This document shows, one piece after another, positions 1,512-57,831 of a DNA stretch of 64,000 nucleotides. Each line of letters starts with the position of its first letter. Position 1 is the first letter of the stretch. Below the pieces are notes generated by a model. It was not told the origin of the DNA. It saw only the letters and a list, made by a program, of their open reading frames with translations, and searched no databases. Source of the DNA: Dudresnaya verticillata (Eukaryota); contig OZ374564.1 of the NCBI GenBank assembly GCA_977862235.1, positions 1,116,001 through 1,180,000 on the forward strand, read 5' to 3'. The translations under genes and the position numbers were made by a program.

Positions 1512-2213
1512 CTAATCCCTAACCCCGGCTTCGATTGAGCGCTCCGTTGAGGAAACCACCAATACGGATGGTCCCGACTCGGGTGAAGGTACTTCCTTCC
1601 GCGGAGGTGGGTTTGTGTCCTTCTCTGGAGAGGCTATATCGCTTTTCCGTAACAGTTCAGGACTTGACGCGGGAGCCGAAGGCTTGTCACCAATTACCCC
1701 GGCACTTGGGCGTTTTGGAGCCACTTCCGGTACGGTGATAGGTGCCTCACTCACCACTGGTGTGGGAGTGGGTGCCAACAGCGGAGCACTTGTCGGGGGC
1801 AGTTCGGCGGCTGCAGGCATTTGCGTCGCAGGAGACAGTGCTGCCGGCACAGTAACCGGCGGTGCTTCCGAAACGGTCTGCCCCTTCGAAGCCCCTTTCT
1901 TGGATGGTGCCGCAGGCTTAGGCACCGCAACAATAGGCTCAACCACGTCTATGGGTTTTGGGGTCTTAACCAACACGGGAGTAGTAGTCTCACGATCCAC
2001 ATCGCGCGACGTAAATGTAGCGACCACCGGAAGGACTGGAGCGGCTGTTTTCTCGATATTCGCTGCCATCGGTGCGACGGGCATGACCTCCTCCTGTTCT
2101 TCCAAGAAGGGGCCAGCTTCTTGCTGCCTCACCGTAACGGAATCGCTCGGGTCGATTGCACGCGAACGCCCCGCTGTCTCCTGACAACTCCCCCAATATT
2201 CGGCCCCATCCAA
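1512..2213 (-). CDS. Pro/Ala/Ser/Thr-rich low-complexity tail, probably the frameshifted continuation of the E1 antisense ORF
   Basis: Same strand and directly downstream of 2253-3629. E3 has the same layout (15401-16726). Confidence 0.55.
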   Translation of the reverse strand: MDGAEYWGSCQETAGRSRAIDPSDSVTVRQQEAGPFLEEQEEVMPVAPMAANIEKTAAPVLPVVATFTSRDVDRETTTPVLVKTPKPIDVVEPIVAVPKPAAPSKKGASKGQTVSEAPPVTVPAALSPATQMPAAAELPPTSAPLLAPTPTPVVSEAPITVPEVAPKRPSAGVIGDKPSAPASSPELLRKSDIASPEKDTNPPPRKEVPSPESGPSVLVVSSTERSIEAGVRD

Positions 2214-2252
2214 ACCGTCACGGTACGCATCCCTTGATGCTTGGCGAGGCGC

Positions 2253-3629
2253 TTAACCCCGATGGGGCTGCACCTCTAAGGCGAACCATTCCGGACGCGG
2301 ATATTCTCGATGAAGGAAATATGGCTCACCCACTCCGGGCCTAAGCGGGGGCACCGATAGGACACGGTCCTCATCCCAACTATACCCCAAGAAGCCCGGA
2401 GTGCGTTGCCAATCCTGCTGTCCGTGTACGGATAAAAGACACTCAACCCGATGAAGAGGATACGCCGACCCCGTCACCAAATCGGTTACGCCGACTTGGC
2501 GAATTAGGGCGATCACCGTCACGGGAAGTTGAAAAATACGGCCACAGTCTCCTCCGCGTAGGTCAGCTTCGTCACGCTGGAAGCAGTGCCAGTCGGATAA
2601 CTTGGTATTGCACCGCACTCCGTAGTAGGCAACCTGGAGCCACGAAAATAGCACCAGCATTGCCCACTCCGATCTGAAGATGCTCCAAAGCACGTCGAGT
2701 TGATCTTGGATCGGGGGACGCTCTCCGTTCGGATGTTCGTGATTCCACTCCCGCTCCGGGAGCAGGTTCGCAGAGAAGTACGCCACCACAGAAGGCGTGG
2801 GCACGGATAACCAACGAGTTACCTCGTATCTATCCCACCACGACGGAGCTGTGAGGTAGAGCTCACGTCGCATCTGATACGGAAGGTGGAAGAACTCCTT
2901 GGTATTCCACAGTTGCAAGATGGGTGCCCCCATATGCATTCCGTCTCGATAACGCGTCCGCAATCGGTGTTCCGTCGCCGCGTCGTCTTTCCACCCGTCG
3001 GCATAGCGGAACCAATACACCGACTGGTCATGCGGTGGGTCGAAGCAGATAAACTGCACCCCGATCGGTGCACCCCGTAGACGGAACGCCTTGGCCAACA
3101 AACGGCTCACCTTCGCGGTATACACAACTTCTCCGTGGCCGTGGCAACGGTACCACAACAAATCCGAAACGGTAGTGGTGCGTTCCTGGCAGTAGCTGTG
3201 CACCCATCGGCTTTGCCACACAAACGCCCGCCGGTTCGGCACGAAACCAATTCGCTGGTTTGCCTTGAAGGGCTGCTCCGAAACGGCTTGGTATCGTCGC
3301 GCTTCCAAAACGGTTGGGTAACCCTCGATGAAGTATGACACTGTCATCGGTGGTGTCACCTTCGCCCGTTCCGAATCGGATCTCGTCGGGCGCCCCGCAC
3401 GGTGCTCAAAATGGTGCCCCGGCCAGTATCCGCTCGGGACAGGACCCTCACCGGTACGGGTACGCGCCATCGGCATCCAAGAGCCTGTCGTAGGCGTCAT
3501 GCTCCACACTGGCACGCGCGACCGTTTCGGAGTGCTGCCTGACGCATATGGGCTCGCGCCCATGTTCCGCATCGGAGTTGAGACTAGGATCGATGGCGTC
3601 CGTAACGGAATCGATGGTAGGTCCGCCAA
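2253..3629 (-). CDS. Antisense ORF of E1, unknown Trp/Pro-rich domain (458 aa); probable true start is the ATG at 3978 via a frameshift near 3670
   Basis: Long open frame opposite to pol, between integrase and PPT. Motifs align with ORFs 14613-15488 and 48696-49595. Confidence 0.7.
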   Translation of the reverse strand: MADLPSIPLRTPSILVSTPMRNMGASPYASGSTPKRSRVPVWSMTPTTGSWMPMARTRTGEGPVPSGYWPGHHFEHRAGRPTRSDSERAKVTPPMTVSYFIEGYPTVLEARRYQAVSEQPFKANQRIGFVPNRRAFVWQSRWVHSYCQERTTTVSDLLWYRCHGHGEVVYTAKVSRLLAKAFRLRGAPIGVQFICFDPPHDQSVYWFRYADGWKDDAATEHRLRTRYRDGMHMGAPILQLWNTKEFFHLPYQMRRELYLTAPSWWDRYEVTRWLSVPTPSVVAYFSANLLPEREWNHEHPNGERPPIQDQLDVLWSIFRSEWAMLVLFSWLQVAYYGVRCNTKLSDWHCFQRDEADLRGGDCGRIFQLPVTVIALIRQVGVTDLVTGSAYPLHRVECLLSVHGQQDWQRTPGFLGYSWDEDRVLSVPPLRPGVGEPYFLHREYPRPEWFALEVQPHRG

Positions 3630-4298
3630 GTTGAGCTCCTCAGCACCACGTCGGACCTCCTCGTCATCATCCTTGGTCGAATCTTCTCCGTGACGGTGGG
3701 TCGCCGCATTCCCTAACTGGGTGTTCCTTGCGGCTGGGCCAGCAGCAAACGGATTCGGATCGTAGACAGACCAGCCGCGGCCCGCCGAGAGTATCTGTGA
3801 CGGTTACGCTGCGGTAACGCCCGTGCGACCACTCGTCGTGCGTGGTACCACAACCGCCGAGGACGAGGCCTGCGCTTGAGTCGAAGCATCTGTAACCGTA
3901 GGCGCACCTGGCGCTCTCGTCGTCTAGCTCGCGCGGGAACGCCGTTTCGGTTGAAGGCTTGCTCTTCTCCCCTGCCATCTTGGAAGCGGGCGCACGAAGG
4001 AGAAGGAAAAGTTGAGGAAGATAGCCGTATCGGTTGTGTGTGGGTGTGGAAGCAAAGGTAATCCGTGACGGTGGGCGCCCGAAGACGTGGCGCCATCTTA
4101 AGGAGGGGGGTCTGTGGTGAAGTGAGCCGTAGCGCGCATGCCGCACGCCGACGGCGAGCCAACCGTAACGGCTGATGTGGCAATACGTCACGCTGACGAT
4201 ATGGCAACGTGTAGCCGTGTCGGATGTGTGTGCGTATGTATTGCTGTACGCTGGTACGCATTGCTGTACAGCAGTGTAGCGCACCAACCATACCGGAG

Positions 4299-13997: not shown

Positions 13998-14612
13998 CGA
14001 CCCCCTCCGAAAACACAAACACGTCAACTTGCTTCAGCCCGCCTGCCTTCCTGCGTCCGCGCCGGTCGTCTGGGTCATCCGCGCCTTCTCGTTTGCACTT
14101 GCCCGCCCTTGGCGTTGTTTGAGCCCCGTCGAAGACGCACGTTCAGCTTCCCCCGCCTTTGGCGTAGGAACGTTTCCCGTCCAAGACGTACAGTTGCCTA
14201 ACTTCGCCAGTGGCGTGCGTGAAACCCTGTCTGTGACGTCGTATCTGTGCACGCGTTCGTGCACCTACCGCCTAGGGGTGGCTTTGAGTTCCGCCTTCGG
14301 CGTTGTTTGGTCCAACGTCGTTGACGTGTGTTTGTTTGTTTCCGCCTTTGGCGTAATTCACTCAACTTCGGAGTCAAGACCGTCGTTGACGTATCGTGCG
14401 AACTCCGCCAGCGGCGTGTGATTGTTGAGCGTCTCAGACGTAATTGCACAATTCAACGGCCTGCAAGTGGCTGCGCCTTCGGCGGCGCCGGTGTATCCGT
14501 CACCATTCGACTTTGTCTGGAGGATTCCCGCAACGATGCGCGCTTATTCTCGCGGACCCCCTGATTCAACCAGCAGGCCCTGCGGCACGAGGATCTCATC
14601 ATCCATTACGCT

Positions 14613-15488
14613 GTGAGCGGATGTTTGCCAGGGGAGTTACCCCTGACCGTCGTGTGGACGAACGAGTGGCGCCATCGGTGCGCCATTACGAGAGGCTGGC
14701 TGCGTATTACAGCCGGTCAGATGCGTGCAGATGCGCATGCGCGTTTCGTCGTGGACGTATATCGGCGGTTTACCCGCTATCCGGGGTCGGTATTGACGCC
14801 AGCCGTCTTTGAGTTTGACGCAGGGCAGTACCGCACCAGTGGTGCGGTTGGGAATGGAGACCGTTTTGGGACGTTGTCACTGAGCCATGTGGCTGTTTCG
14901 ACTGAGCCGTGGGTGCTTCAGGAGGCTAACCTCCTTGGTGTACGCTTGAAAGCGGATTTCCGATACCTCCATAGGACGGGCACCTTCTATTGGGAGCGCT
15001 GCGTCCGTTGGGAGTGCGAAACGCGCCGCCGCAAAGGTGTTTTCGTTCCGTATCAAGATACGGAAGTTGATCGCATTGAGCGGGAAAAGTTGCCGCACTG
15101 CTTCATCCGTGTCCCGCCGCTGTGGTGGGACTTTGAAGTCTGCGAGGGCTTTGCGGTTGATTTGCCTCCGTGTGTCATGTATATTGGCTCCGAGGTGCGG
15201 ACGGATCCGTACTCCCGATGTTGGATCGCATTCTTCACCGAGTGGGTCATCAATTTGACCTACGCCTGGATGTGGGAGGTGAATGACACCTTCCGTCTCT
15301 TTTACGTGCGACCACGCGTGATCAGCCTCCTTGGCGCGCTCGACTTGGCCGAAGTGCTGGTGGTGCCAAGAATTGCCAAGCGTTCTGGGATCTACGCCAT
15401 GTGGCGGATAACGTCAACTGGGACGATCCGGCTGTTGTGCCGCCGAGAAACAGACGCCGTAAGGCAAACCGTCCGCGTTACGCGATGA
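14613..15488 (+). CDS. Antisense ORF of E3, conserved domain part; frameshifts near 15360 into ORF 15401-16726
   Basis: VPPLWWDFEV...VDLPPCVMY...FTEWVINLTYAW...RLFYV aligns with the E1 antisense ORF. Confidence 0.7.
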   Translation: MSGCLPGELPLTVVWTNEWRHRCAITRGWLRITAGQMRADAHARFVVDVYRRFTRYPGSVLTPAVFEFDAGQYRTSGAVGNGDRFGTLSLSHVAVSTEPWVLQEANLLGVRLKADFRYLHRTGTFYWERCVRWECETRRRKGVFVPYQDTEVDRIEREKLPHCFIRVPPLWWDFEVCEGFAVDLPPCVMYIGSEVRTDPYSRCWIAFFTEWVINLTYAWMWEVNDTFRLFYVRPRVISLLGALDLAEVLVVPRIAKRSGIYAMWRITSTGTIRLLCRRETDAVRQTVRVTR

Positions 15489-16726
15489 GTAGAAACCATT
15501 CCGCCTGTGGCGATTGGGTGAGGTACAACCCGGGGACCAAACGTCTTACGACGGAGAACATCGCTGAGAGCCATCGTCGTACGGACCGCTTCACGCCAGC
15601 GAACCACCCACGCGGGTTGCGCAAGAATTACGACTTCGCGGGTGATTTCCCGCCGCACTTGAGCGCCATGATGGCGGAGGAGGATGCGTTCCACGCTAAC
15701 AGCGGACCGGTTAACCCATCTGGGACGGAGGTAATTATGCCTATGGCGGTTGAGTCTACTGCGGGGGCAATAGCCCCTGCGACAACTTCGCCAGCGGCGG
15801 TAGGACCGGCGGTTGTTGTGCCTGTTGGCTTGCCGTCGGTTGCGCCGTTGGATCTCTCGGCGCCCGTCAATGACGGTGATGGTGATGCCATCATGGCTGC
15901 GCCAGTGGCGAATTCTGCGTCTGCAGTTACGACTCAAGGCGGAGTGTCTAACGTCGCTGACGGTGCGCATCGCACTCCTGCAGGGGCCGAATGGACTGAG
16001 GAGCAGCGCCGCACGGTGCTCGCATTCTTACGGGCCACCGGTGTCGTCACTGACGGAGCGAGCGGAACATCGACGACGCCACTTGGGCACTCGCTCCTGG
16101 CTGCTCTGCAGCCCAGCGTTGCCGTGGTGCCGGCGTCGACTATCGTTGCAACTGTGCCGTCTAATGACGAAGTGGCGAAAAAGCCGGTGTCGCCTAAGGT
16201 GGGTTGTTCGGGTTCGTCCGCCATTGCGTCTACCGACGTTGTTAAAAAACATCCGCCAAAGGCGAGTGCGATGAAAGCGCCTACGGCGGGTCCGCAGGCT
16301 CCAGTAGCCTCTTCGTCCGTGACGGATGTTGACCGTTCAATGCCTTTGGCGGTTAATGGGGTCCCGTCACCGGAGGTGCCGGGGCCGTCGACTTCGCCCA
16401 AGGCGGTTGAGGATGCTCCACCTCCAAAGGCGAGCGAGCTTCCTTGTGTAGCGCCTAAGGCGGATAATGATTCTAACTCTGCGCCTGTGGCGGTTGACAA
16501 AGAGTCGTCGCCTAAGGCTTGGGGTGAGCCAAGCTCGTCGCCAGCGGCGGATGTCGCGACTTCGACAGCGGTGGTTGTGGCGGGCCCCTTGCGGTCTGTC
16601 CCTGCACCTACTGCGAGCGCACCGTTGGTGACGGAAGACGACCTCTACGAAGAGGCGTTAAGAGAATCCGCCAATGGCATCGGGGATGATGCCCCATCTG
16701 AGCCGTCTGCGACGAAAAAGCCGTAG
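15401..16726 (+). CDS. Antisense ORF of E3, C-terminal part with Pro/Ala/Ser-rich tail (441 aa)
   Basis: Long open frame containing the DWVRYNP motif followed by a low-complexity tail, as in E1. Confidence 0.6.
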   Translation: MADNVNWDDPAVVPPRNRRRKANRPRYAMSRNHSACGDWVRYNPGTKRLTTENIAESHRRTDRFTPANHPRGLRKNYDFAGDFPPHLSAMMAEEDAFHANSGPVNPSGTEVIMPMAVESTAGAIAPATTSPAAVGPAVVVPVGLPSVAPLDLSAPVNDGDGDAIMAAPVANSASAVTTQGGVSNVADGAHRTPAGAEWTEEQRRTVLAFLRATGVVTDGASGTSTTPLGHSLLAALQPSVAVVPASTIVATVPSNDEVAKKPVSPKVGCSGSSAIASTDVVKKHPPKASAMKAPTAGPQAPVASSSVTDVDRSMPLAVNGVPSPEVPGPSTSPKAVEDAPPPKASELPCVAPKADNDSNSAPVAVDKESSPKAWGEPSSSPAADVATSTAVVVAGPLRSVPAPTASAPLVTEDDLYEEALRESANGIGDDAPSEPSATKKP

Positions 16727-36928: not shown

Positions 36929-38104
36929 AACCTTGAAGAACGAAATATTTCCAATGACTGGTCAAGCTCTGCCTGCTTGTTTCCACACGAAAAAACAAGC
37001 TTGTATTCTTACGTATGCCGTGAGGAGGTACGTCAGGCCTGACGCGCGTCAAAGACAAATTCGAGAGTGCTCTAGTTCCGCAACTGCATCTGCCGTATCC
37101 GCGGGAAAGGAGAGTTCGTATGCTACATGCGTTCGATGCTCAGAGATACAGTGCTGTTTAAGTAGAGGGCGGTGTCGGAATGGAACGGAGACTCCAGATG
37201 GCGCAGAATATACCGTAGACCGATGGGCTACCTACACGTTTGTACACAAATCATCTCCGCTGCGATTGGTTACAAATAGAGGTATTGATGTAGTTGTAGC
37301 GCCCCGATTACCGTTCATTGAGCTCATTCTTATGGGCTGGCCCAGTCACTTGCTCCATCTCTCCTATACAGCAGGGATATGATTTGACGCGATGAATGTC
37401 TCGTGTAGGAGGTGTAAGTATTACTTCTCTTGATCAAAAACAGTCCTCAATAGCTCTTGCCTGGGCTCATACTATTATGGACGTCCATAGCTGAAGATAG
37501 CTTCGAGTGCAATTGCTGATCTCAAGACTGCTGACGCGCGTCGCTGCGCCATTTACCTGTTCGTCCCGAAATGGGCGGGAACTTCTAACCATGCGAATCA
37601 TGCTGTTCACAGCGTCTGTCTACTCAATTGCGGGCGACTCATCGCACTATCGAAATCAGAACAATTTGCCGGAAAATAATGCTGCCGTCGATACTCACCA
37701 CAACATGAGGACTGCCAGTCAGTACCGCGTGTTACGGAGTTGTGGGGCTACATTTTATTCTTTGCACTGTTGTTTAAGTGAGCAAAAAACAGCATCCTCC
37801 GCAATACGAGACGATCTTTTTCGCGCGAAAGAATAGCTCATGTTACCACCAAAACGATAACAGGATAGTCTGCGGTGACGTGTGAATCCCACGTTGGCTT
37901 TGTGTAGAATACATGTCATCATCAACCGCAAAAAGCACAGTGATCGGGGAATCTTGAAGCCCGTCTGGCGGCATCTATCTCCCAATATAAATTCACACTT
38001 TTGTTAACCAACCCCTCATGACTCGTACAGCCGCACCCCCGGAACACTTCTCTCTTCTCTTCTGGGCACGGCGTGCAGCTTCCCAACAACGAGAAGATTA
38101 TATA

Positions 38105-40474
38105 ATGGCTCCAGCAAGACAGAAGGCATCCATCCGGCAGCGCGGGCGACCCAAAAACATTTCGCAAAAGCTTGCGAAGTTCCGTGAGGATTTCGAGGCG
38201 GAAGAGCTTTCAAGCGGAAAGACTACTAAAGGGAGTCAGTCGAGTTCTGGGAAGGAAAATCCATCACCAGATGCGAGGAGGAGAATCGGAAAATCTCCGT
38301 CGAGTTCCGGCGGCTCAGCCAATCCACGAAGAAAATACATCCTGGACTCAATTGATGAGGCAACTGACATCCCACGCACAACAAAGTCTTTATCATTTCG
38401 GAAGAGGCGTGTGCAAGCACCCAGAGTCCCACCATTATCTGGTTAAAAGCGCTTTCTACCTGTTTCAACAGGTCATGAGGAGGATCTTGCCGACTCGGAT
38501 CGCAGTAGGTTGCGCAGCAGTGAAGAAGAGTGCACGCAACCGATGGAAAAGGAGTCGACACACCCATCGAAGAAAGGAAAGGAATACCTCACACCCGAAC
38601 GCAGGAGTAATTCCCCTCTTAATTCGAGATTACTGTCCGGTAGCGCTAGCAATTTAGATAGGCGACCAGGAGTTGGTGTTGAAGGTGCTCCTCGCGAAGA
38701 CCGTTCTTTTGGGGAGAAAGCAGGGGAACAATACCCAGAGTTTATTGATGATGATGAAGCTTTTCGCACTAGTTCAGTACCAGGATCAGCCATGAGGACA
38801 CGTAGAGGTGATGTCACAGGGGAGCCTCTTGCCAAACGTAGCATTCTGCCCGCTTGTTCCCGCGATGATTATTTCGTCGGTTAAGAAATTGAGCCTCTCG
38901 TCACCACCGACAGCTGTCCACCTGCTTGGACTCCTACAGATACGGATGTTCTGTCCAGGCTTATATCATCTGTGGGAAGAGATATATCTCGACAAAATGA
39001 AGATCTTCACAAGGCATGTTTGGCAGCAAACAGGATGTTCGAAAGCAAACTCTCCTCGGAGATGAAGACGCTTCGAGAGGAGATTGCTGATATGGCTATC
39101 TCGATGCCTAAGGGGCGGAGTCCTCGTGGACTTACGCAAGTCAAGAATGAGGTTAAAACCACCTTGGGCCAATGGGAGAAAACATCGAATGCCCTCACCC
39201 CTTTCAAAGACCTCGTCTTCTGCTCGTCCGTCTTTTCGCGAGTACTCGTCTATAATGCCCCTCTTATTATTGTGCGGATCTGCAAGGCGTTGCGTACTGG
39301 GTTACCTAGAGTGCGCGGTAAACGGGAGACCGTTCTTCATAATGCTTCAAAGGCGTTGTCCACACTGATGTTCAGTCTTATGCCTAACGAATCTCGTAAG
39401 AAATTCGGAGAAGGAATCGGGAAAAAGCACGGGAACTTCAGGTTTACAGTTATGAAAATGCTTTCTACAATTTCCATACAGACAGATTTGGCTTCTCAAA
39501 AAACCAGGCAGCGGTTGTTCACCTGGAACCAGTTCACATACGCCGAAGGCGACAACCGAGGGCCCCGTCGACCAGCCTATGTGGACTAAGCCCGGTTACG
39601 TCATTTTGAATACATTACACGCCGCTCGGCAACAACTGGAACAGAAGAAGGACACTCGTAAGACGATATTGAAGGATATTCCAACCAAATCAGATGCGGA
39701 TACACATGGAGCCATGAAAGGATTTCGTTATCTTATCCTGGATCTTCATGACGGACGCGAGAGGCTCCGTTCTATGTTTTCCCAGATCTTGGATATCTGC
39801 TCGTGAACTGGAATGAGTTTTTCCCAGATGTGGACCACCGGAATCTCAAGCTGAGCTGGATGGATCAAGTCACAGTCGATTTAGATGTGGAGATAAGATA
39901 TCTGTTGCTCGACGATGTTCCGGAAATGAATGTGCACCGTGGAGGCCCGACTACCGAAACGGATGCTAAGAACAAAGCAGAGTTGGATGAATTCTTTGCT
40001 GATTGCCCGGAGATGACTCTTGTCGCTGAACATGAAGTTTTCGCTATGTTCTGTCCTCCCAATAAGTCAAGACAGAAGAAACATTCTGGTGGTAGGAAGA
40101 AGGTAATTCGCCGTAAGATAAATCTTATTGACGTATCCTGGAACGTTATCAGCGACTATACGAAGGCTGAAGATGGATGGGCTTTCCTTCGAGCACAAGA
40201 GTTATCTTTGAAGAGAATTTACGCGATCGCAATGGTTCTAAGAGAGCTTGTAGATATTTACATCCGGTCGCTCGACCCGAGCTCTGGAATTCGTCCAAAG
40301 TTAGAATCGATCGAGATAGGACCCACTAGCATAGCCTTGCTAATGACCGGCAGAGGGACTCAGGAAACGCTCATAGGGCGTCGTTGCATCCGAATGACGG
40401 AGACAGAGTTCGCTGCCTTGCACCAGCCCATTTTCGGTCGAAACGAGAATGAGGAAAGTCCCTTTGAGGATTAA
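38105..40474 (+). pseudogene. Large frameshifted ORF convergent with the CMC-like transposase, unknown function
   Basis: Chain of + strand ORFs (MAPARQK..., 38510, 38972, 39579, 39803) with a disordered basic N-terminus and a globular C-terminal part. Confidence 0.5.
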
Positions 40475-40699
40475 AGGGATGACGCAATGATTGAGGTTTC
40501 GGACGACGTGGATGTTGTTGCACTTGAAATTTTTTCCTCGGCACTGCATGCAGTGGCCGTTGATCAGACAAGGCATAGAGCAATCAAACCAAGTTTTTGC
40601 ATGCACAACGAGATATGTTTCTGTATCGCCTGATGATAAAAACTCGTATGCCTGCAGGCATATTTGCATTAAACGGCGTAGGTTTGTGCAGAGTTGTCT

Positions 40700-43600
40700 G
40701 AATAATGAATGATGGGTCTCAGAACAATAAAGGGGTATTGGTTTCCATGAAAGATGAGCCGTTTGGTCTCTTAGCTTGAGCCCGGCTTCCGGCTGAAAAC
40801 GAGCGTCTGCGAAGAATGGTTGCGAACGTGCCAGCTTGATGGTTCAGTGATGATGTCCTGCACGTCAATTTGACCTTCTAACGAGTTTTTCTGCTGTGTT
40901 TACTATAGGAGGTGATACATTACGAATATTGACCGGAGCATAGAAAGCAATTGTGAAACGCTAGTATAGGGGTCGGAAATCTGGATCGAGATTGCTTGGA
41001 ACCAATGACCCTGCAAGCGCTCACTTTCCAGCCATCAAAATGTGAATTGGTGAGCGTTACTGATTCGACTACTACTCCAGCGGGCAATAGCAACCACGAG
41101 TGCCCCAGGACACGGGCGAATTCGTGGTCGCGATACTATTGCGTGTGCAATGGCGCACTGCATGTAGCTTCTATAGCAGTGAGTGCTGGAGATGGTGTTC
41201 TGGAGTACTACCATGCGCATGCAAGCATCAAAGCGCGTTGCGAGGCCACCCTCAAGTCAACGAAGGTAATAATATCAATGCGGGTACCAAATATGCTGCG
41301 TTCGATTGGTTAGATTACAATACACACTACCCCATTCTTGGTGGGAACCCCTGTGATCTGCCTTGAAGTCTCATCTTGGAACCACTTAGAATGCTGCTAC
41401 GATGTAGAATCTTACCCGAATTTCGATGGAAAGGACATACCTTGCCGTCTTCAGATCTGCAGTCGTGATATATTGATATTCTTCTATCGCTATCACCCAT
41501 TTTCATCCATTGGACCGCAGCTGAACTTAGTGGCTTTTCCATCATAATCATGTTGGACTCCTTTATGCAACGCTGCACCAGACTCGAGCTATCACCATGT
41601 CCAATCTGAGCCATCCCGATGGCAACATATTGTTGCAATTGGGCACCATGTTTGGAAGTGCAACAAAATATCTTATCCTTCATCTCTCGTGGAAGTACAA
41701 GAGCTTGAATGGCATTCCCTGGGCGTATTTCATTGTATCCATCTACCGAGGAGATGTTGTTTTCGTCTTTTGGGTCCGACTGGACTCTTTTACCAGTAGT
41801 AAAAAGCGTCAGCTCCGATTGCACGACTTCGTGCCCCTGAATTGTAGGGTACCACTCTCGAAGGCAAGAGATGCAGCTTTCAACGATAGCAATCACTTCC
41901 TCCCGTCGATCGACAATATATGTAGATTCAGTAGCCCTTTGTTTGATGCATTTCCATACCGTAGCATCGGAGATGAGAAGTTGGACACCAGTGACCTTCC
42001 CTTCAAGAGCCTCTTGACTGGTGCAGAAAGTTGATCAGTGAGGCAGTTGTCAATTATCGCAATCATCTCATGATGCTCATCTTCTACCAGTCCTTCTAGT
42101 ACTGTCCTTAACTTGAATTTCCGTAGTTCTCGTCGAGCGACCTGCTTATTACTACCATCTTCGGATGTTAACTGCCTGGAGACATTGGCAAGACGACCTT
42201 GCCAGTCATTTCCAATGCAGTGCTCAGGTGCAGAGACATGCGCCTTGCCGTAGTTCGATCGAGCGATACATCTCTTTAATGGCTGATGAGCATGTTCAAA
42301 TACAAGCTCGATAAATTCCCGGACGTGCCCCATGATAGGGATAGAATGGAAATAGAGCTCCAGAAGCCTGTGTAGATTCGGTTTGTCGAGAAAACCTTTT
42401 ATGTCAGGAAACTTGGAGCAAACAAGATTCACTGATGATACATAATCCTTCGCCATTGCCTGTACCTCCTGGTAGCATATTGAGCGACCAGCGCCAGACA
42501 CGAAACGCACAGCTCTTAGTCCATCAACGTCTTGTTCAGGCCACCAGTACGTATAACCTAATATTTTCTGAAGCTTCTGAAGTATTTGCACGAGTCAACG
42601 TGCAAGATACGTTGCATTTATCGAGCGACTTCGTAAGGGTAGCATTATGGCCATCACTTGGGAAGCGACGCGGACGACAAAAAGGAGACTGGATAGGCTC
42701 ATGCTGTTCATCTTCTTTGACTCTGGGTTGTAATCTCTCTTCTGCTTGAGCAAGCCGTTTTCGGACAAGGCGTGAACTATATACCTGTCGGCAACGAGCC
42801 GTTACCCTTTCGGAAATGAATAGAATATTTCATCCATTATATTGCTGGCCAAACCGGACAGAAGGTGATCAGGGGCGACAAAGTTCGAGCGATATGCATC
42901 ACATACTCCTGGAACAACGGGGCTCCCCGAAATAGACCTTTGAACGAGATGTTTTACCTCTTCGATTCGTTTCTTTATAATATCAACGGGCCGCTTTCGT
43001 CATCCACTCTGACTGCTGGTTTCATGCCCAGTGTATTAGCGTTTCTGCCACTCATACCAGCATCTCGCACTGCTCCTTGTCGCTCCCCTGTTTAAGCGAA
43101 AGCGGAGTCCTGGAAATGTATAAGAGTGGTGTATCCATTTTGTGTCGATGCATCGTAATTTTGTTTCTCCTTCCTGAATGTGCACTGAGTACACGGCGTT
43201 TTAGCAATGTGTCCTAGTTGATCGACAACATGAGCTGATGCAGGATAGTCGCCTATAAAACCAACGATATCGATGAATATCCTGACGTATTCACCACTCG
43301 GCATTTTCCCTGTATTCCGTCTACCATGGACTTCACGAGATCATCAACCATGCAGTGCAATGCCTTTTTAGTAGAAACGCCCGGTGGAGTAAGAGAAATA
43401 ATACAAACTGCCGAAGTGCTTCGACGAGATTATGCAACAAGCCCGACTGGGAGCATGTAGCAGCCTCCAGCAGAACCTTGGGGAAACAATGAGGAACCCA
43501 GCTTAAAGTCATCAAGTTAGAGTAGAATTCTATATACAACGTACTGGGTACCATCTTGAAGAATCCCTTTGTTAGGGTCCGAATCAGCCACATGAGGAGG

Positions 43601-45446
43601 CTCCTCTTCGTTCTAAAGGTAGCGTAGTTTTCGAACAACTTGTCTGAATATAGGCTTAAAGACTCCCTCTTCTTTTTCCTTGGTTACCCAAAGCAGGGAG
43701 AGCGAAGGGATGCTGTGCGTTTCTCCCATGGAGGCATGAACGATTATTATATAGGTTCTGGAGGCGGTTTTTTCCCTCGGTATCAACAAAGTACACTTAT
43801 CTCCAGGAAACAAGGAAAGGATGCGCTATATAGCAGTAAGGTACCCCTTTTCAATAACAGAACCTGAAAACTGTCCACAAAAACAGTTTGACAATCGTCT
43901 TCCCATCCGTTGTCAATTGGTCCAGGGCTCGGGCTTCCTTAAGTCTTCTAGTTTTTTCCTTGGTTTCCAACGCACCACACGCAGAGTATCTTAGCACCAA
44001 TACGAAAAGCGTTTGAGGCCGTTGAAGTGCTGTAGCTGTGGTCCGGGTCCGGCACTTGTCTTGAGACAGTTGGCTCGAGATGAAATCCCGGACCTGCTTG
44101 CTTCAGGAACCCTGAAGCATCTTATACAATCACATGTTGCCCCTGTAACAGGACTTTCTTCCGAGACTTGACGAGCGCTGAGCTCTCAAACGTCCTATTA
44201 AACACTCTACTGCCAGAACATCGCTGCTCACCGACTTGTGCGTACAGTTGGTCGTAAATAATATTTGTTGCAATATCTAGAAGCGCCCTTGAAGACGGCA
44301 ACACAATACGCACCTCGACACTTCCGGGTCCCGTCTCTCTAGCATCCTCATCCCCTTGTTCGTGACGAGAGCTGTCTCTACATGACTGCCTACTCGAAGG
44401 AGTCAGCTCCATAGCAGGACTCTGAATAAACTGCACTTCTGTATGGTCGACCTGTTCTTTTAATATCGGGTTAAAAAGTTTTGGTGCGAATGTCTGGGCT
44501 CACCATGACTTTTAAGCAGGTCGTTCATCACTTGTAAATCTTCCGACCGGAAGACCTTAATGACGCTCTTTGGGAATACCTTCTAAAGAAGCCTTTCATA
44601 GAACCTTTTCACTGCTTTATAGGAATGAAGAGCTTCACCATGGGCCAATTGATCTGACAACATCAAATTGTTCAACTGAAAATCTCACACTGCCAGATAC
44701 TATTAACGTAGAAAGTAATCGTTTTTTGTTAGACCACTTCTTAAGTTCCCTTTTCAGAATACGTAAGTTATGGGTAGTTCTGTTGATCGACACGATGTTC
44801 CCACAGCTGCTCTTTCTGATGAGCTTCCAAGCTCCTTGTGGGCTTCTCCTTCAACGTCTACTAGATCTAGGATCTCATCTTCCTCACCACTGCTCCGATA
44901 CTCATCAAGTCCTGTTGTTTCCTCAAGTTACGAGATGAAAGGAACAAACTCTCCTCCAGCCTCCCTGTCTCGTTCTCCTCTCAGTTGCTCTAACATCACT
45001 TCCGCTGCAAGTGCTGTTGAAATTTGAGGCCATCGACTGCTGGATCCAGCTCCATCATTTCCTTCTTCGTCAAAAAATCGTTCCTGTGACTGGTCAGTAC
45101 CGCTGATCTCAAACGTGCCTGTTGCAGATGGGGATCCCCTGTCTTGAAGTAAATCGGAACCTTCACGCTCGTGTCTGTTATCATCATCTCTTTCCTCGTT
45201 GAGTTCTGCGGACCGCCATGGCGATGCTTCAGGGATTTCTTCTACGCGATATTCAAAATCCATATCCTTCAATTTGACGGCTCGCTGATCGATACCTCTT
45301 CTCGCCCGATATGGGTCGAATATATTTTTTGCAAGAGTCTGGAGCCATGTGGAGTTATCAGAATCCCTCTTCCGCTTCCGAGGCATGACCGAAAAGCTCT
45401 TGAGCTGTTGTGCTACCTGAAAATAGAATGCAATGACTTGAGTCAA
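40700..45446 (-). pseudogene. CMC-superfamily (Plavaka/Mirage/EnSpm-like) DDE transposase, decayed
   Basis: In order: LDDF...SAGGCYMLP...LTPPGVS; FIGDYPA...GH...PCTQC; APDHLLSG; KPNLH...IPIMG...FEHAHQPLKR. Confidence 0.75.
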
Positions 45447-46119
45447 TGTTCACGGAATCCTCGGATGTTGCAGAGCTCTGCAACAATTGTTACTTTAGCA
45501 GTTGAGATGAAGGGGTAGTGAGATCTCTCGATCCTTATGATTAATTCCGAGCTCAGCCTTATGGTTGAATGGACAACGATAACAGCGCAAGCCAACAATG
45601 TCATTGGTCTCCGGGCCAACCGTGCTCAAGTGCTTTCTTTTTGAAGCTAATCGCGCGTCATTGGCGCGTCATTGTCGATCTGAGCCATTGAAATTCAGCA
45701 ACCAGAGTTGTAATGCCTCGGATCGATCGCGAAGCTTGTGTTGACGCTGTATGTGCGCATATATATGCGCTGTATACAGCGCTTGCACATGCTGGTGCCT
45801 GGCCCCAACTGTAACATTGCACAACCTCAGCAAAAAACGCAAAACAGCATACGTTCATGCATTGTCTGCAGACAAGTGCCGTCCGTATGAAGTGAAGCAT
45901 CTTTTTTGGAGCTCCAATACACCTAGGTCATGAGCTAGCTCAAGTTGTACGAAAATTGTATAAGCCAATGCACATTCATCTCGAGACTTGATCCATCTTT
46001 GCGACAGCAGTACTTTTTCTTTTAGGTTTGTGATCCTTCAGGGTGGCCATGGCCACGAGGGTGTACCCTAAAAGTGCCGGCACTGTACGCTGCTAGCCAG
46101 GATCTCCGATCTGAAGAGA

Positions 46120-46163
46120 ATATCGTCACTGGTCAAGAGACTAGTCTGGACCAGTGACGATAT
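46120..46163. repeat. Perfect 15-bp-stem inverted repeat
   Basis: ATATCGTCACTGGTC - 14 nt containing the palindrome AGACTAGTCT - GACCAGTGACGATAT. Confidence 0.85.
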
Positions 46164-47289
46164 ACGCAGCTGCGTCACGACGGGCGCCCGTCAATGCACA
46201 TGTTACCGGACGCAGCATTTGCGTTCTTATCAGTTCCCAACAATGTTTCCACGCTTAGCCCTGCGTCACTGCGTCCAACACAGTATATGCTCGCATATGC
46301 GAGTATTTACTCGCATAGAACTATGGCAGATACTCGTATCTCGTTGCACCTTAAATTGCAGATAAAGCTTGCTCGTGCCAAGTGCTCATCCTAGTACAGA
46401 TGCATGTATTAACTAGTCTTAATTAGTCTGCTTAAGCTTAATTAGCTTCAGCTGTGTGAGCATAAACCAATTGGTTTATGCTTAAGCTCTTAGGGACACC
46501 TCATTGCTTGTATGCGGGGTGGGTGTCTTTATATTGCACATTTTATACCCAGCCATCTACATACAATATTGATCGATGCGTAAGTAGAGAAACGTGATTG
46601 ATAGTACTTAATGTAGTAAATAACGATCGTCGACCTAAATATGAACGTAGAATTGTGAACGTAGGTTAACCCGATCGATTGTTAGCATCGACAATTGTCG
46701 TGTTACTTATTGTTATTGGTTTAAGCCAAGAACAATAAGCAACAATGAAGTGAGAATTGACGCTTGAAAAACGAATCCAAAAGGTAACCTCCATGGTGCC
46801 CGAGAAGGCGAGCAAAGGGATGAAATCGTTCCAATATCTGTATTCATGTTTCCTTCAACCTCTGTGTTGAGAAAATATGCTGGAGTGTTCCAAGGACCTT
46901 AAAGTAGTAGCTACTCTCTGACGCGAACAAAATGGCACCTGAAGGCCAATTGGAATTGGCATTGGGCAACATAAGCTAATAAAATAAATAAATAAAGTCT
47001 CAGCAAGAAAATAGACGTGCATCATGATGACTTGTGCTCAGCAACACCAGTGCAATAGCGCGCGTGAACTCATCCATCGATATTGAAACTTCAGCAGTGC
47101 CCTATACAGCCGCAGCTATAAAACAACAGTGAGGTGGCGGTTTTAAGTATACCTATATGTGTACAAAGTAGGATTACTTAGTGTTATAGACGTAGGCAAT
47201 AAAAAACTTTGCTTGTCGGGGCTCCCCTATTCCTGCGCGGGAAATGGCTCGTACGAGGTGGTGGAATTGCGCACACCATAGGTGTATGT

Positions 47290-48285
47290 ACAATAGAAGT
47301 CGTAATCAAATTTATGTGAGTAGAGTTTGAGGAGGAACCTCTATCACAAGCACCCCAGGGCGCTAGGCGCTAGCCTCCCTCATGAGGTTAATGAACAGGT
47401 CTCTTTGCGTAACTGCAATTGTACATAGCTTTCGTTTCAACATGTTTAAACATGTTTAACTATAGTGCACTATAGTGCAATTGTACATAGCTTTTTCAAA
47501 AACTATGCACAATTGCACTAGTTTAGCGCACATTCGTGCGCATTTGCCCATACAATACCCAATTATATAAATGAAAGTCAGAGTTAATATCAGCAGCTGC
47601 TGCTGCAGCTGCCATGGAACTAGTGCCCTACTCAAACATGATTGATAACGAGTGCTGACGTGCTAGCAAGTGCTTGCTTGTCACGCGCGTGAATTGGTCG
47701 TTCGAAATTGAGGTCTCAATGTCGTCAGCCGAAACCCCGTCGTAGGACATTTAAGTGTATAGAAATTTCTATAGTGAGTAGACCTACGTAGGCCTACTCC
47801 GGATTGCAAGGCCTAGAAACTTCTATCGTTAGCATATGCGATATCAATATCGAGAAGCTCCGCGATGCTATTAAGAGGTAAAACTTAAGTACCTGTAAAC
47901 GGCTCTCGTTCTGTGAGCAATTGCGCACACAGAAGTGTCAACTACAACAAAAAGCACAGTTACGTTTATGTGAGTAGAACTACTAAGCTCGACCCTGACG
48001 AGGAACTTGTACCTCAAACAGTTGGGGTAGCCCAGAGCACTAGACGCTGGCCTCACCAGGTTAATGAACAGGTCTCTTCGCAAAGTGCAATGCTCGCACA
48101 TGGACTTTTTAGTGCTAGTACTTGAGCTGAATTGCCCGCACAATACACCACTATATAAACAAAAGACGGCGTCATTCTCAGTGGTGTTTGACGCAAGAGT
48201 GACGCGTGTGATTTGGTGGATCGACAATGAAAAGTTAGCAGCGTCGGCTATCGTTAGCACCGAGAAGCTTCTCGATGCTAGCGAT
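47290..48285 (+). repeat. Diverged tandem duplication with embedded hairpins
   Basis: Shared blocks in the same order: TTTATGTGAGTAGA (47311/47966), AGGTTAATGAACAGGTCTCT (47385/48058), TATATAAA, TATCGTTAGCA, GAGAAGCT..CGATGCTA. Confidence 0.65.
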
Positions 48286-48695
48286 GGAACAAAAATCTCG
48301 CCTGTCGCATCCACCCATTCTCGCCATGGGGTTGGGAACGGCAGATATCTCCTAGGAGATATTTTAATTTCTCCGCCTTTAGATGTGCCAAAATGTAATT
48401 ATAATTAAAGAGAATAGAGCACGCCAATTCGCCAATTCGCCTGCGGGGTGTACATCAGTGGGCCTATGAGCCTGTGCAAAGGCTCTCCTACAAGACCTAT
48501 GTTGTTTAGAACGACAACTCACAAGCCGACATAGCTCGACTTAAGCATCTCGCGTCGCTCGACACTCGGTGTGCACGTGTATCGCTGCGAACATGGCAGG
48601 CGTATTGCGAGGAGCCTCGGTATCATATACCGTTCACGCTGTATTGCGACCGTACCTTTTGTCGTGACGGATTCGAGGCGTACTATGTCTATGCC

Positions 48696-49595
48696 ATGGA
48701 CATCTTTCTGAGCAATGATGACCTGGAGATCAGAATGGAAAACCTGCCGCTGCTGAAGGGCAGAGTGACTGATAGAAGATCGTTTGCATTTGCCGAGCGG
48801 CCCGTATTCTTCCGGGAACTTCACAACCGTATCATACACAACGTTTGGATTGCTTCGGATCGCTGCATGAGCCGCGAAATCGACACTCTCCCTCCATCTA
48901 CTCTGCAGGCTGACTTCCCAACATCTCCGCAATGGGTTGAAGCGTTCCACCAGCCAGCCGGACGCCCGGTACCGACTCCTTTGGTTCTGTACTACTATCA
49001 TAGGGAGCTTCGTTCTCAAGATGGCCCTCGTCGTACGAAGAGGATGGATAAACTGCAGAAGGCCTTGAAGTTGGAATACGTTGTTATGTTTGTGGAGGCA
49101 TGGTTCTTGGAAGCTGCTATAGGGTCCAGGCAGTTTATCCTTCCGTTTGAAACCATTGAGAAGCTCGGAAAAATAATTGGAGATGTAAAGATCGTCAAGA
49201 ATGTAGCCAACGTATACATTCTGTCCTTGATGCGCCTCGCTGCTGTTACGGATGCCAAACTGTACAACCGCTTCCACTTCGTGCGTTACTCGTGGATGAT
49301 GGCTCAAAATGTTCGCTACACAAAGCTGCCGGTTCCAGACAGCATCTTCCTGTGGGCGAAGAAAGGGACAGGAATCATGTACATGCAGGAGCCTTCTGGG
49401 AAGATATGCTTTGCTTCTTTGTGGACGAGGAATATGTCGTTACGACCACGTACTCTCTTACTCCCATTTGGTATCTTTTGTCCTGATGTTCGAGGTGTGG
49501 ATCCAGTAGTGTCCGGTAAATCTTTGCCGCAATCTCCCTCTCTTGCAATCACACCTAGGACAGCGCTAATGGCATCCCTAAAGGCGCTCAGATGA
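48696..49595 (+). CDS. Intact 299-aa protein homologous to the Gypsy antisense-ORF domain
   Basis: ATG-to-stop uninterrupted. TSPQWVEAF...PVPTPLVLYYY...LEYVVMFVEAW...RQFILP...FVRYSW parallels the E1 and E3 antisense ORFs. Confidence 0.7.
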   Translation: MDIFLSNDDLEIRMENLPLLKGRVTDRRSFAFAERPVFFRELHNRIIHNVWIASDRCMSREIDTLPPSTLQADFPTSPQWVEAFHQPAGRPVPTPLVLYYYHRELRSQDGPRRTKRMDKLQKALKLEYVVMFVEAWFLEAAIGSRQFILPFETIEKLGKIIGDVKIVKNVANVYILSLMRLAAVTDAKLYNRFHFVRYSWMMAQNVRYTKLPVPDSIFLWAKKGTGIMYMQEPSGKICFASLWTRNMSLRPRTLLLPFGIFCPDVRGVDPVVSGKSLPQSPSLAITPRTALMASLKALR

Positions 49596-52289
49596 CCCCG
49601 AATATCGTTATCGTAGTACTATTTCTCCGCCTCCTGCGTTACTTCATATGTACCTGCAGCCGTTTGCTCGTCGTGGCTTGTGGAATGTGCGCCATGATCA
49701 ATAATACTGCGAAGCCGTTGCAGGTTATGGAGCTCTTCATTAGTGGGAAGTTCTTCCAATGATTCATACACGCAAGTAGACCTTCCTTCCTTTTTGTGAC
49801 AGAAGCTGGGCTGCGCATTCAAAAAGGACATGTTTGTCCTGCTCGATAAAAATCAGTTTGATGATGGAACATTGACATGCTTTTCCTTAGATTGGTTCTG
49901 CAAAAAAGCCCGTTTGAGACATAGATGCGCTATCATCCCACATAGACCCACAGGGGCTGTTTACTCCTCGGTTTTTGAACATCCCGAAATACCATAACAA
50001 TTCCAGAGTTGATCGTCTCTGTTTCAAGAACATCTTAGCAAATACAGTGAGCAAGCGGATATACCTGACGAAAGCCGAAATATCATTGCTATGCCATTCA
50101 GTCCTTTTCTTGTTCACATCCACCTCATGGAAGTATCTGGAGTTAACGGCGAGGATGCAGCATGTCATACCAACTGATGTTCACGACAAGAAAAGGTCGT
50201 GAGTCGACATTTTATACACCAAACCACGGCTACGCTTCACTTCAGAAAGCAAGCAAAACGGGTTAGAGTCCAGCATGGTCTGAGGACCCGACATTGAATG
50301 AGCCGAGTTGATATACATAACTCGTGTGGAGCAATGCAAGTCACTGAACTCCAAAGATGTGCTTCCATCTTCACTTCAGTAGAAAATCTCTCTCTCCTCA
50401 TTCCCGCGAACAGCTTGTCTTTACCCTTCTTGATAGACATGTAGCGATTGAACCCATCTTATTCAAGATATTTGCGAAGCTCAGTCACAATTAGTTTCCT
50501 AGCGGGGCGGATGGAGTGGTTTGGCATGCGATTCATATATGCGATTTGTCTCTTCGATCAAAAATATTTGGGAAGGTTAACCTTCAAGCCGTAAAACGCT
50601 AGATATGTTAACGTCCCTTAGTTTCTCTTGCGTAGCTCTACCAAAACCCGACTTTATCTAACAGCTGACAGCGAGCAGCTCCCCGGTCAAGCTTCCTGAC
50701 AAGTTGCGTTTAGGCAACGCTTTATAGAACGCAGGTCAGAGTAGCCTTGGCCTCAAGAGATAACTTCGAATTGTTCGCACGGCATGCATTGCAGGCCTCC
50801 CAGGACCGGCCCCCGTGGCAGATTATCGTGGCTTGCTCTAAAAGTAGCAGGGGCAAGGCAGTTTCGAAGGTTTCCGATACCGTGATTGCCGCAGCTGTGC
50901 CTAACCGTATGTTCTGTCTGTGGTTCGAGAGAGCTCAACCAAGTTCCAGCTCCCTGATATCTACTAGAATAAAAATGCTATGATTTTTATCAAATTACGA
51001 AAATCTCCCAAGGCAACGTGCTGAGTGCTTGACATGGCGTAAATTAACAAAAAGTGGGATGTGAAGCGTGCTTCGCATGCTAGAGCCTGCATTTGACAGC
51101 AACTACCACGCCAAAACATATGCATCCTAGAAGGTAGCTTGCAATTGGCTATGCCCGTGTATACAGGACGGGAATCTTCCCAATTGCGAGAGCTGCAGTA
51201 ATCCACATTTGGATACATACTGGACCCAACGCCCTGTGGAAAGGTGTATTATAGGTACGCGGGTGTAGCTTCGAATCGCGTGCATTCACTGCGTGCCGTT
51301 CTGCAAACCAGCCTGCTATGGTAGATATTAACAACAAAATTGCATATGGTCGCGACAGCTGCAGTATGTAAGAGTACTATAGCACAGTTGTGGCAAAACG
51401 CTCGTCAAAGCGGGGTCTATTTTCAACCAATCCGTTCTTTAAGCACCCCCGCGTCAATTTCGCCTACAGATGAACCATGTTTCATGTATACATGTGTCAA
51501 CTACCGCGTTCACCACCTGGGCGAGGGCACCAAACGCCAGTCTAGGCTATCCGATGTAGGCAGCTGGAGGCGAACCTGGATGCTGTGCAGCGCGCGCTAC
51601 TCCATCTGGAGAACTCACACGACCTGTTGGAGGTGCTAACAGCAGACCAATTGGTTGCGCAACCGCAGTTCGTGCCGCAATCTCAGCTTCCGCGGCGGAA
51701 TTCTAGTCGCAACGACACGCTGTGTTCCACGGGAGCGGCTCCGGATGATTTGAGCTAACCCAAGCAGCGACATCCCGCCGCGAAGCTACCAGTCTCTGTG
51801 CAGCACGGACGACGGACGCAGTGCTATCCTCCTTCAAATCCACACTACCTGCACAGGCCCAAGTGCTGTATTAGAAACCGGTTGTTGATAGGCTTCTGCA
51901 GCCTGAGGAATGAAAACCCCTAGCACGCACAGCAAGCACACGCAACCGCCGCTTTCCACAGACTGCGTGTCTCTACAAGAGTTTAGTATTTTCCTCGAGT
52001 GGAGCTGGCTCTTTCCCTCGGGAGCATTCCCGAATCTCACATATTCATTCAACAGTAATTGAGTCATTGTAGTTTGTGTCATTCAAGTTCAACGGGTTTC
52101 TGCATTCTTCCCCGAGAGCATTATCCCCGACAGACCACAACGCATCCCAAAGCGTGCCTTCAGCCCGCACAAAAGATACGTGTCCTCTAATATTACAGTT
52201 GTGCGTCCCTATAGTGCCAACTTCAATACCGCCCTAGGAGCAGTTATACCGTCTCGGACGGACCTCTACCGCCCTCGGAATTTCACCGC

Positions 52290-53305
52290 CAACGGCGTGC
52301 AAGGTCTGGACCCGGGCGCGAACCTGTTCGCACTTCCTGGGAAATGTCGTTCTAGGCGTAGATTACAGCAAAGCCAGTTTCGGATGGGTGGCATGCGGCA
52401 CACGCGGTATATGCGGTGTACTGCGTCAGTGGCCTACAACGCCAAGGGCGTATATACTCTCTATGACGGTCCGAAATCACCGACGGCTTGTTGACCCCGT
52501 TTGGAACATTGTCGCGAAAATACCGTTCGACCACGGCAACCGTCGATGACCTCGCGGCGCGCGGGCGCCGTGAGGCCGCGCGCGCCGCAATCGAACACGA
52601 TCCGCAGATCGGGATTGCCCCTTTGTCACACGTGTGCTCTAGATGCCGCGTGCCGCGACTGCACTGTAAGCCAGGCGCGCCCAGGACGCAGGGGTGTAAG
52701 GCAAAGGGGGCCAGCAAGGATGCGCCGCGCGCACGCGTGTAAGCCCAGTACAGATTCGTACCAAGATTGGACGCGACATCACACGCGCGTCTGCAATTCG
52801 CGTGCGGTGCTACGTGTAGGTGTAAGCGCGCGCCCCGCGTGCACGGTGGCGGGGACAAATTTCTCAGGAGCACAGCTGCATTATGGCAGCGCCTATCAGA
52901 CGCGCGGCTGGGCAACACGTGTCCGGGGTTCCCTCGCTGCGCGATACCGCCGTCGCCACCCGCGTAGTAGGCGTAATACTTAAATAGTTCGTCATCGATG
53001 ATGCCTTAAACACCCGGTAAAACCGGTCTTGGTACCTGAATTCCCTTTCCGCTGGCGGGTGCGCCGTCACCGCTGCTGTTAGGAAAAGCGTCTGTACCTC
53101 CGTGCTGCCACGTTCAAAACCGTCGTTGGCTTGTTTCCCTTTTCGTTTTGTTTCGGTGCATTCGTTCAACCTACTTGCTGCCCGATGCGTTTACAGTCCC
53201 CCTCGTGGTAGTGTCCATACTCTACCATCCCTACTGTCGGTAACTTGCTACCCGCCGGGTTCCGAACTATCCGGCCGTGTTTTTGTCGTAGAGGTTTTGC
53301 ACCAA
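52290..53305 (+). repeat. Diverged LTR related to the E3 LTRs (opposite orientation; left boundary uncertain)
   Basis: ACCTCCGTGCTGCCACG...CCGAAC..GTGTTT..GTTTTGCACCAAA matches the reverse complement of the E3 LTR ends. Contains TGTAAG repeats. Confidence 0.6.
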
Positions 53306-56700: not shown

Positions 56701-57410
56701 GTGAAACAACAATACTTTTCGAAGGCGAGTAAGGAGGTTGCGTCTGTGTGGTCAGCATGTAGGTGTTCGGTAGCACCAGACCCTGTGGCAGGTCTTCTGA
56801 GATGCCTAACCTTGCAATTACAGTCTCGCAAAACAGTAGAAGCTGCACGGCGTGAGTGACGAACATGACAGAGCTCTCCGGTGCCCATCCGTGCATTGTT
56901 TTGCCCATCTCTTGCAAACGCCGCTAGCGGCCCCACAGGACTTGTAGCAGTGTCTTCATCGATGAATAGTTCAACGGCACAAGCGCTTCACAGGAAGGCA
57001 AGTTGAGAGGAAATAGGGGGCCTTCAGTCAAGTTAGAGAGTTGCTTGAATACTGAAAGAGCATCCACATTTTCTCTTCTCGAAAGAGTGGAGGAAAATCG
57101 GAACCACCGCGGCTCTAATCGAATGGAAGTGCTGAAAATTGTGGTGCATTGCCGTGACCCTCTTTTCGCGTGGAAGCCCACTTCTTTCCACGCGCACACG
57201 TGGCGCAATCACCCACGTTTACACGAGCACACGCGCGCCACGCATATGCAGGGGAATCCTCGACCGGGTGCGCCCCAGCAATGCGCACCCTTAGATTACA
57301 GTGATTTACAGTGCCAGCGTAGTAATTCTACTTAGATATTTTTGTGTGATCTTTAGCGAGCTCACGGGTGCGTGCTTATGACAAGTGGCCCTGACAGGCG
57401 CGCGCACCCT
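53735..57410. repeat. Diverged inverted repeat pair, about 53735-53935 and 57200-57410
   Basis: GAGCTCACTAAA..AAAAATATCTA..GCACTGTAAA..GTAATCTAAG.GTGCGCATTGCTGG.GC.CACCCGGTCGAGGAT occurs in opposite orientations. Confidence 0.7.
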
Positions 57411-57831
57411 GTGGTGCAAACCATGGCGCGCGCGATCACAAAGTCAGCTCGGGATTCGTCCGGAGGTGTCAGCGATATCGTATCACGTGCGTGCTGTAAT
57501 GCGAATGCCATCGTGGTGCGCGCGATCACGAAATCAGCGCGGAATTCGTCCGGAGGTGTCAGCGATTTCGTATCACGTGCGTGCTGTAATGCGAATACTA
57601 TCGTGGCGCGCGCGATCACGAAGTCAGCGCGGGATTCGTCCGGAGGTGTCAGCGATTTCGTATCACGTACGTGCTGTAATGCGAATGCCATCGTGGCGCG
57701 CGCACAGTATGCGCACTGTAATACGTTTGCCATCGTGGCGTGCGCATTCACGGAGTCACTTCGAAATTCGTATTTCTCGATTATTTTCACGTAGACCACG
57801 GAGTCGATTCGCGGATAGAGTCTATACCACA
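57409..57831. repeat. Partial copy of the 5747-6499 LTR family with three tandem 90-bp units (57421-57690)
   Basis: Ends in TATACCACA. The 90-bp period is directly visible. Confidence 0.88.

Follow-up and report, generated by a model that had tools for sequence, protein, structure and literature searches.

Does a protein domain carried by antisense open reading frames (ORFs) of Gypsy retrotransposons also exist as an intact gene outside them? The question is raised by a 299-amino-acid ORF in 64,000 nucleotides of Dudresnaya verticillata DNA (contig OZ374564.1), the whole of which we analysed and refer to as the window. The window is a nest of transposons, with three Gypsy elements, a pogo-like DDE element, a non-LTR reverse transcriptase and others. 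In the original prediction the ORF was an intact, uninterrupted homologue of the antisense domain outside any recognisable retroelement, and could be a domesticated host copy serving in counter-defence or as a decoy, the cellular source of the captured domain, or cargo of another element type. Translation bore out the frame itself, which runs from an ATG at 48696 to a TGA at 49593-49595 with no stop between. The description as intact did not survive: the ORF is the back part of a gene that has been cut by an in-frame stop (Table 1).

Table 1. Features of the broken gene, its surroundings and its relatives in the window.
Feature	Position	Strand	Evidence
299-amino-acid ORF, 3' part of the gene	48696..49595	+	conserved internal Met as ATG
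Full conserved domain, ~325 amino acids, with one in-frame stop inside	48438..49436	+	profile and frameshift-aware alignments
In-frame TAG, after the first conserved block L-x-G-x-H-x-W	48507..48509	+	sequence; homologue alignments
8-bp tandem duplication just 5' of the domain	48422..48441	+	Tandem Repeats Finder
Decayed EnSpm/CACTA (Plavaka-type) DDE transposase, many stops and frameshifts	41330..45386	-	homologues, tblastn, Atlas
Non-coding spacer, dense perfect palindromes of unrelated sequence	45450..48440	.	shuffle comparison
Broken gene, no Pfam or PDB match	37991..40474	+	in-frame and shifted ORFs
Possible broken gene converging on the ORF, approximate limits	49619..50600	-	short frames; no Pfam or PDB match
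Antisense ORF 1; homologous domain near 2613-2876, low-complexity tail past a stop	1512..3803	-	profile, hhalign
Antisense ORF 2; homologous domain near 14985-15338, frameshifted tail	14565..16726	+	profile, hhalign

To delimit the gene we compared it with its homologues. A profile of 40 homologues matched the full domain at 249.9 bits, reading straight across the TAG, and homology began 86 codons 5' of the ATG; these 86 codons alone scored 59.7 bits, compared to at most 1.7 in 100 shuffles. Among 38 aligned homologues, 22 reach 5' of the ATG, and a Met occupies the ATG column in 21 of the 24 that have a residue there. Eleven of the 32 best-conserved columns (those conserved in at least 80% of homologues) precede the ATG, including the R-T-F-x-R-D block. 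In an AlphaFold model, the Met encoded by the ATG (Met63) lies inside a predicted helix spanning residues 54-68, with the helices upstream of it confidently placed. All five homologues tested by frameshift-aware alignment were colinear with the gene across the TAG, and an intron skipping the TAG is ruled out because they align there without a gap. The TAG could be an assembly error. Translation of the upstream frame revealed no in-frame ATG 5' of the domain start, only stops. A working protein is most likely no longer produced from this copy, and the locus is a case of ordinary decay.

We then assessed the predicted kinship with the two Gypsy antisense ORFs. Pairwise BLAST of the 299-amino-acid ORF against them was marginal (E 0.003 and 0.002, 22-24% identity). 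Using a profile of 40 relatives that included no window sequence, antisense ORFs 1 and 2 scored 23.2 and 20.0 bits and ranked second and third among the 181 ORFs of the window, the next scoring 5.4 bits; none of 300 shuffles of either antisense ORF reached its score. Profile-to-sequence comparison by hhalign gave 84% (E 7.6e-6) for ORF 1 and 84.7% (E 6.7e-6) for ORF 2. Judged by these sequence comparisons, the 299-amino-acid ORF is a distant homologue of both antisense ORFs, and the relationship is remote but real. Three of the motifs originally named as common to the domain, P-x-W...VPTP-x-V-x-x-Y, E[YW]-x7-W and R-x-F-x-LP, are indeed present in that order, with a gap of seven rather than six residues in the second; VRYSW is not a family motif and falls in an insertion that a single relative has in common with the ORF.

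Both antisense ORFs lie in elements of recognisable type. ORF 1 opposes an integrase and chromodomain at 1-930 on the plus strand (Pfam rve and Chromo), and ORF 2 sits between pol (17939-21628, minus strand) and the 3' LTR; the Gypsy element that contains it has a chromodomain, an LTR pair at 13075-13389 and 25328-25638, and Pfam RT, RNase H, integrase and Chromo matches on the minus strand. In an unrooted FastTree phylogeny of 35 rows, which is silent on the direction of transfer, the two antisense ORFs grouped together on long branches and the 299-amino-acid ORF fell among environmental relatives, closest to P0034 (support 0.96). The ORF groups apart from the antisense ORFs and is therefore no recent copy of them.

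The relatives define an unnamed protein family. A word-based protein search returned no match for the ORF and one for the alignment, and the family surfaced only by exhaustive search, which found 40 relatives at E <=0.001 (11 at 1e-10) with 23-37% identity. None of 59 sequences from the 30 of 40 clusters looked up carries a source name. Members consist of a core of about 325 amino acids with variable low-complexity or coiled-coil extensions, and among the residues that hardly vary are several Arg and Asp, Tyr, Trp, a Glu and prolines. The ORF does lack the low-complexity tail, as had been remarked, but this is common in the family: at least 190 amino acids follow the domain in only 12 of 40 relatives, contig ends perhaps cutting some of them. 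Two tail-less relatives, P0033 and P0043/P0061, combine the family domain with an N-terminal RING-like Cys/His pattern and form a sister group in the FastTree phylogeny; for one of them Pfam zf-RING_2 gave E 0.039. They are candidates for host genes or E3-type effectors.

No Pfam match was found in 39 aligned members at E up to 10, nor in 40 homologues at E up to 0.01, and a search of PDB by sequence returned no match for the family. AlphaFold modelled the frame that is open from 48510 with a pLDDT of 82.3 and a pTM of 0.81, and the C-terminal part folded alone reaches a pLDDT of 88.8. With the whole model, the best Foldseek E was 0.44 in PDB and 0.41 in BFVD, and the best VIA match (Z 5.5, rmsd 3.5, 76 aligned) was generic helical, which does not in itself prove a new fold; the C-terminal part alone gave at best Z 3.1 and E 1.6 in fold searches. 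An ESM Atlas comparison with one homologue was uninformative (best 0.76). Our literature search, which did not extend to Repbase Reports and preprint supplements, found no published description of the family; possibly it is already in Repbase unnamed, for instance as one of the Chondrus EnSpm ORFs, or is PAG1 (discussed below).

Family loci were absent from the viral collection and prokaryote genomes scanned, and metagenomes gave one, L001, a 2.8-kb record without a transposase and the sole relative with DNA context. Directly downstream of its homologous ORF, at L001:1997-2750, a palindromic 12-mer core recurs seven times in 750 bp, at intervals of 70-210 bp, in what looks like a binding-site or subterminal repeat array.

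To what, then, did the broken gene belong? That it lies outside retroelements held up, with no gag or pol pieces found at 46-54 kb; that it lies outside any recognisable element did not. Head to head with the domain and on the opposite strand, a decayed transposase starts 3.05 kb upstream. Sixteen homologues map over most of the transposase by tblastn, one of which, Gracilariopsis chorda BWQ96_08694 (49% identical), is the only named relative of any protein searched. Direct Pfam searches gave no match for the transposase; Atlas look-alikes of its catalytic part, which count as leads, carry DUF4218/Transposase_21 and Plavaka at 0.92-0.93.

The spacer between the two genes holds 19 rows of palindromes, some overlapping, compared to a mean of 1.2 and a maximum of 5 in 200 shuffles, a sixteen-fold excess; all other 3-kb tiles of the window have 0-5. 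The palindromes extend from 45466 to 48362, ending 75 bp before the domain, and the spacer also contains a diverged direct repeat of about 200 bp (47242-47432 and 47897-48108; score 121 versus a shuffle maximum of 48). Rather than protein binding sites, the spacer palindromes could be footprints of hairpin-type excision or of template switching. Rfam returned no match at 45.4-52.5 kb. The GC content of the ORF (0.50) is within the range of the neighbouring broken genes (0.46-0.51), the antisense ORFs being at 0.58-0.59, and its trinucleotides fit the 38-45 kb block best by a small margin. Beyond the transposase, the broken gene at 38-40 kb is likely to be another accessory gene of the same element, and protein-like broken frames on both strands (40340-41330) lie between it and the transposase end. 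Two domains suggested by eye, a SET domain at 40957-41310 (plus strand) and an Ulp1-like protease at 49.6-50.6 kb, found no support in Pfam or PDB.

We searched around both genes for element ends, in the form of CACT[A/G] termini accompanied by target duplications of 2-3 bp. The 25 CACT[AG] inverted-end candidates were at chance level and none that brackets both ORF and transposase has a flanking duplication, in an element that is old and nested; two candidates, 37765-47131 and 41325-45520, would leave the ORF outside.

We conclude, with a probability of a little over 60%, that the broken gene is a dead accessory gene of a giant EnSpm/Plavaka-type transposon spanning roughly 38-51 kb; of the readings originally offered, cargo of another element type has thus become the best. 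The reading is favored by the stop, the kinship with transposon ORFs, the nearby transposase, the continuous spacer, GC content, the sense orientation of the ORF relative to the nearest LTR-like piece, its placement in the tree and the 12-mer array of L001, which fits a set of binding sites. Counted against it are the lack of element ends, the end candidates that exclude the ORF, the missing transposase in the short L001 record, the better preservation of the gene compared to the transposase, the chance that the stop is an assembly error and the failure to detect the known Plavaka accessory genes PAG2 and PAG3. The gene and the transposase probably belong to one element, and would once have been read divergently from the palindrome-rich spacer. 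Red-algal EnSpm families on record are 16-20 kb long with 4-5 ORFs (PMC6431247), and Plavaka elements of 17-19 kb are described with three accessory genes that move between transposable element (TE) families (10.1101/2025.02.11.637652).

An alternative, unlikely but the best placed of the rivals, is that the ORF is a remnant of an older Gypsy element, an antisense ORF that lost pol and LTRs by deletion and lies beside a DNA transposon by chance. The other two members of the family that the window contains are Gypsy antisense ORFs, the window is an element nest with an LTR-like piece close by at 52864-53153, and the two end candidates described above would terminate the DNA transposon before reaching the ORF. 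However, the ORF is in sense to that LTR-like piece, which is wrong for an antisense layout, and no pol lies between them or elsewhere at 46-54 kb. The DNA upstream of the ORF showed no likeness to the window LTRs and instead forms one palindrome-rich block with the upstream region of the transposase, and the GC content of the ORF is below that of the antisense ORFs.

Less probable still is a host gene, derived from the transposon domain or ancestral to it, that was recently pseudogenised or whose stop is an error or is read through, with a counter-defence or decoy role like that of MAIL1/MAIN. The ORF was predicted to be uninterrupted where nearly every other gene is broken, but it is the fourth longest open frame of the window, and the three longer ones are all in transposons. 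Homologue alignments show one break in about 1 kb of the ORF's gene, whereas the well-aligned core of the transposase has nine in 2.28 kb (one stop-frameshift pair merged), about four per kb. At the transposase's rate, at most one break in 1.0-1.16 kb has a probability of 0.06-0.10, so that the deficit is not significant; it leans slightly towards longer selection and is the main remaining point for domestication. The domain also retains 29 of the 32 best-conserved residues, scores 244.1 bits against the core profile (leave-one-out range of 16 near-full members, 165-405) and has a confident fold. Plants offer a precedent in a domain present in Gypsy elements, MULEs and host silencing genes (PMC5418596), and the two RING-fused, tail-less relatives may have a host-type architecture. 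Set against these points, a product started at the ATG would begin in the middle of a helix and miss 11 of the 32 best-conserved columns, and not one of the 59 sequences from 30 clusters is source-named, although the transposase search did yield a named red-algal protein. Both the domesticated and the source readings are unsupported because the stop lies in the domain, no ATG precedes it, the surrounding transposon genes are broken and the relatives are unnamed.

Least probable of all is that the ORF was cargo of a different, unrecognised element, perhaps a Helitron-like or non-autonomous unit that landed next to the EnSpm element or within it. In favour of this, the ORF and the transposase are not linked by any element ends, and Plavaka accessory genes are reported to be mobile among many TE families (10.1101/2025.02.11.637652); against it, searches of 46-54 kb turned up neither a further transposase nor a Rep or helicase, and the spacer palindromes run unbroken from the transposase to the ORF.

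Several other features of the window were observed in passing. An element with terminal inverted repeats of about 100 bp occupies 53795-57363 and contains broken frames at 54602-55378 and 56507-56923 (minus strand) without Pfam match. A 143-amino-acid open frame at 52063-52494 (plus strand), just left of the LTR-like piece, likewise has no Pfam match. Three related young repeats with a 90-bp tandem unit (5778-6502, 57424-57831 and 63196-64000) are 92-97% alike, and one copy splits the integrase of the 5.4-10.4 kb Gypsy element. The non-LTR reverse transcriptase at 61241-63211 (minus strand) contains a frame of 444 amino acids, the window's longest with an ATG start.

Returning to the accessory gene of an EnSpm/Plavaka-type element, what might intact members of the family do? 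Tentatively, and by analogy with known accessory proteins, they may act as regulators that relieve the silencing of their own element or promote its expression, or as adaptors to host chromatin factors. As a non-enzymatic regulator, such a protein would help its element to escape silencing or be expressed. The folded domain, which has conserved Arg, Asp and aromatic residues and no known catalytic fold, would bind either nucleic acid of the element or a chromatin factor of the host. The disordered or coiled-coil tails, or the RING finger, would be variable effector parts, and a useful module of this kind could be swapped between retrotransposons and DNA transposons. More speculative, and in our judgement doubtful, is a fuller scheme: an undescribed accessory protein whose fold is new would pass between chromodomain Gypsy elements (as antisense ORF) and giant EnSpm/Plavaka elements and act in sequence-specific anti-silencing on palindromic repeat arrays, and RING-fused versions would degrade a silencing protein of the host or have turned into host genes, making the family a red-algal counterpart of VANC and the plant mobile domain.

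The interest of the family is that a domain with a confident fold and no Pfam, PDB or BFVD match is apparently common to retrotransposons and a DNA transposon, and so to both transposon classes within a single genome. The Bostrychia preprint names as an open question the means by which red seaweeds silence transposons and their giant elements resist (10.1101/2025.02.11.637652). With the domain delimited, a structure model built and a candidate repeat array in view, that question becomes testable, and the family profile is a new marker for annotating red-algal elements.

Among known systems, the plant mobile domain (PF10536) differs from this family in that none of 39 members gave a Pfam match at E up to 10, the lineage is different and any host gene of the present family is a candidate at most. 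What the two would share is distribution: the plant mobile domain is described as common to extra ORFs of Gypsy elements, DNA transposons (MULEs) and the host genes MAIL1/MAIN, with links to silencing (PMC5418596). The TRP28 ORFs (PF04195) of plant Retand Gypsy elements encode a conserved domain of unknown function and occupy the antisense strand between pol and the 3' LTR (PMC11963269), the same placement as that of the two relatives in the window. They have no sequence match to the family, and that paper reports no likeness of TRP28 in other TEs; Retand elements are non-chromoviruses of flowering plants, whereas the carriers in the window have a chromodomain (PMC11963269).

The Plavaka accessory genes PAG1-3 resemble the present locus in lying near an EnSpm-type transposase, in a red alga, with non-coding DNA rich in inverted repeats (10.1101/2025.02.11.637652). 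PAG2 combines a methylase with SET and PAG3 combines ParB with a 2OG oxygenase (10.1101/2025.02.11.637652), and no Pfam or fold match to any of these domain types was found in the ORF family. PAG1, compared here by description only, has no known domain, as is the case for the ORF family, and PAG genes are reported to move between TE families; the available portions of the text draw no link between them and Gypsy antisense ORFs (10.1101/2025.02.11.637652).

For VANC of VANDAL (PMC5735166) and TnpA of Spm (10.64898/2026.08.24.746577), no sequence or fold likeness to the ORF family was detected, and the window palindromes differ from one another in sequence, unlike the VANC motif array. By analogy, VANC and TnpA would provide the functional model for intact members of the family, that of a DNA-transposon accessory protein which recognises motifs repeated in the element that encodes it and, by binding them, relieves silencing.
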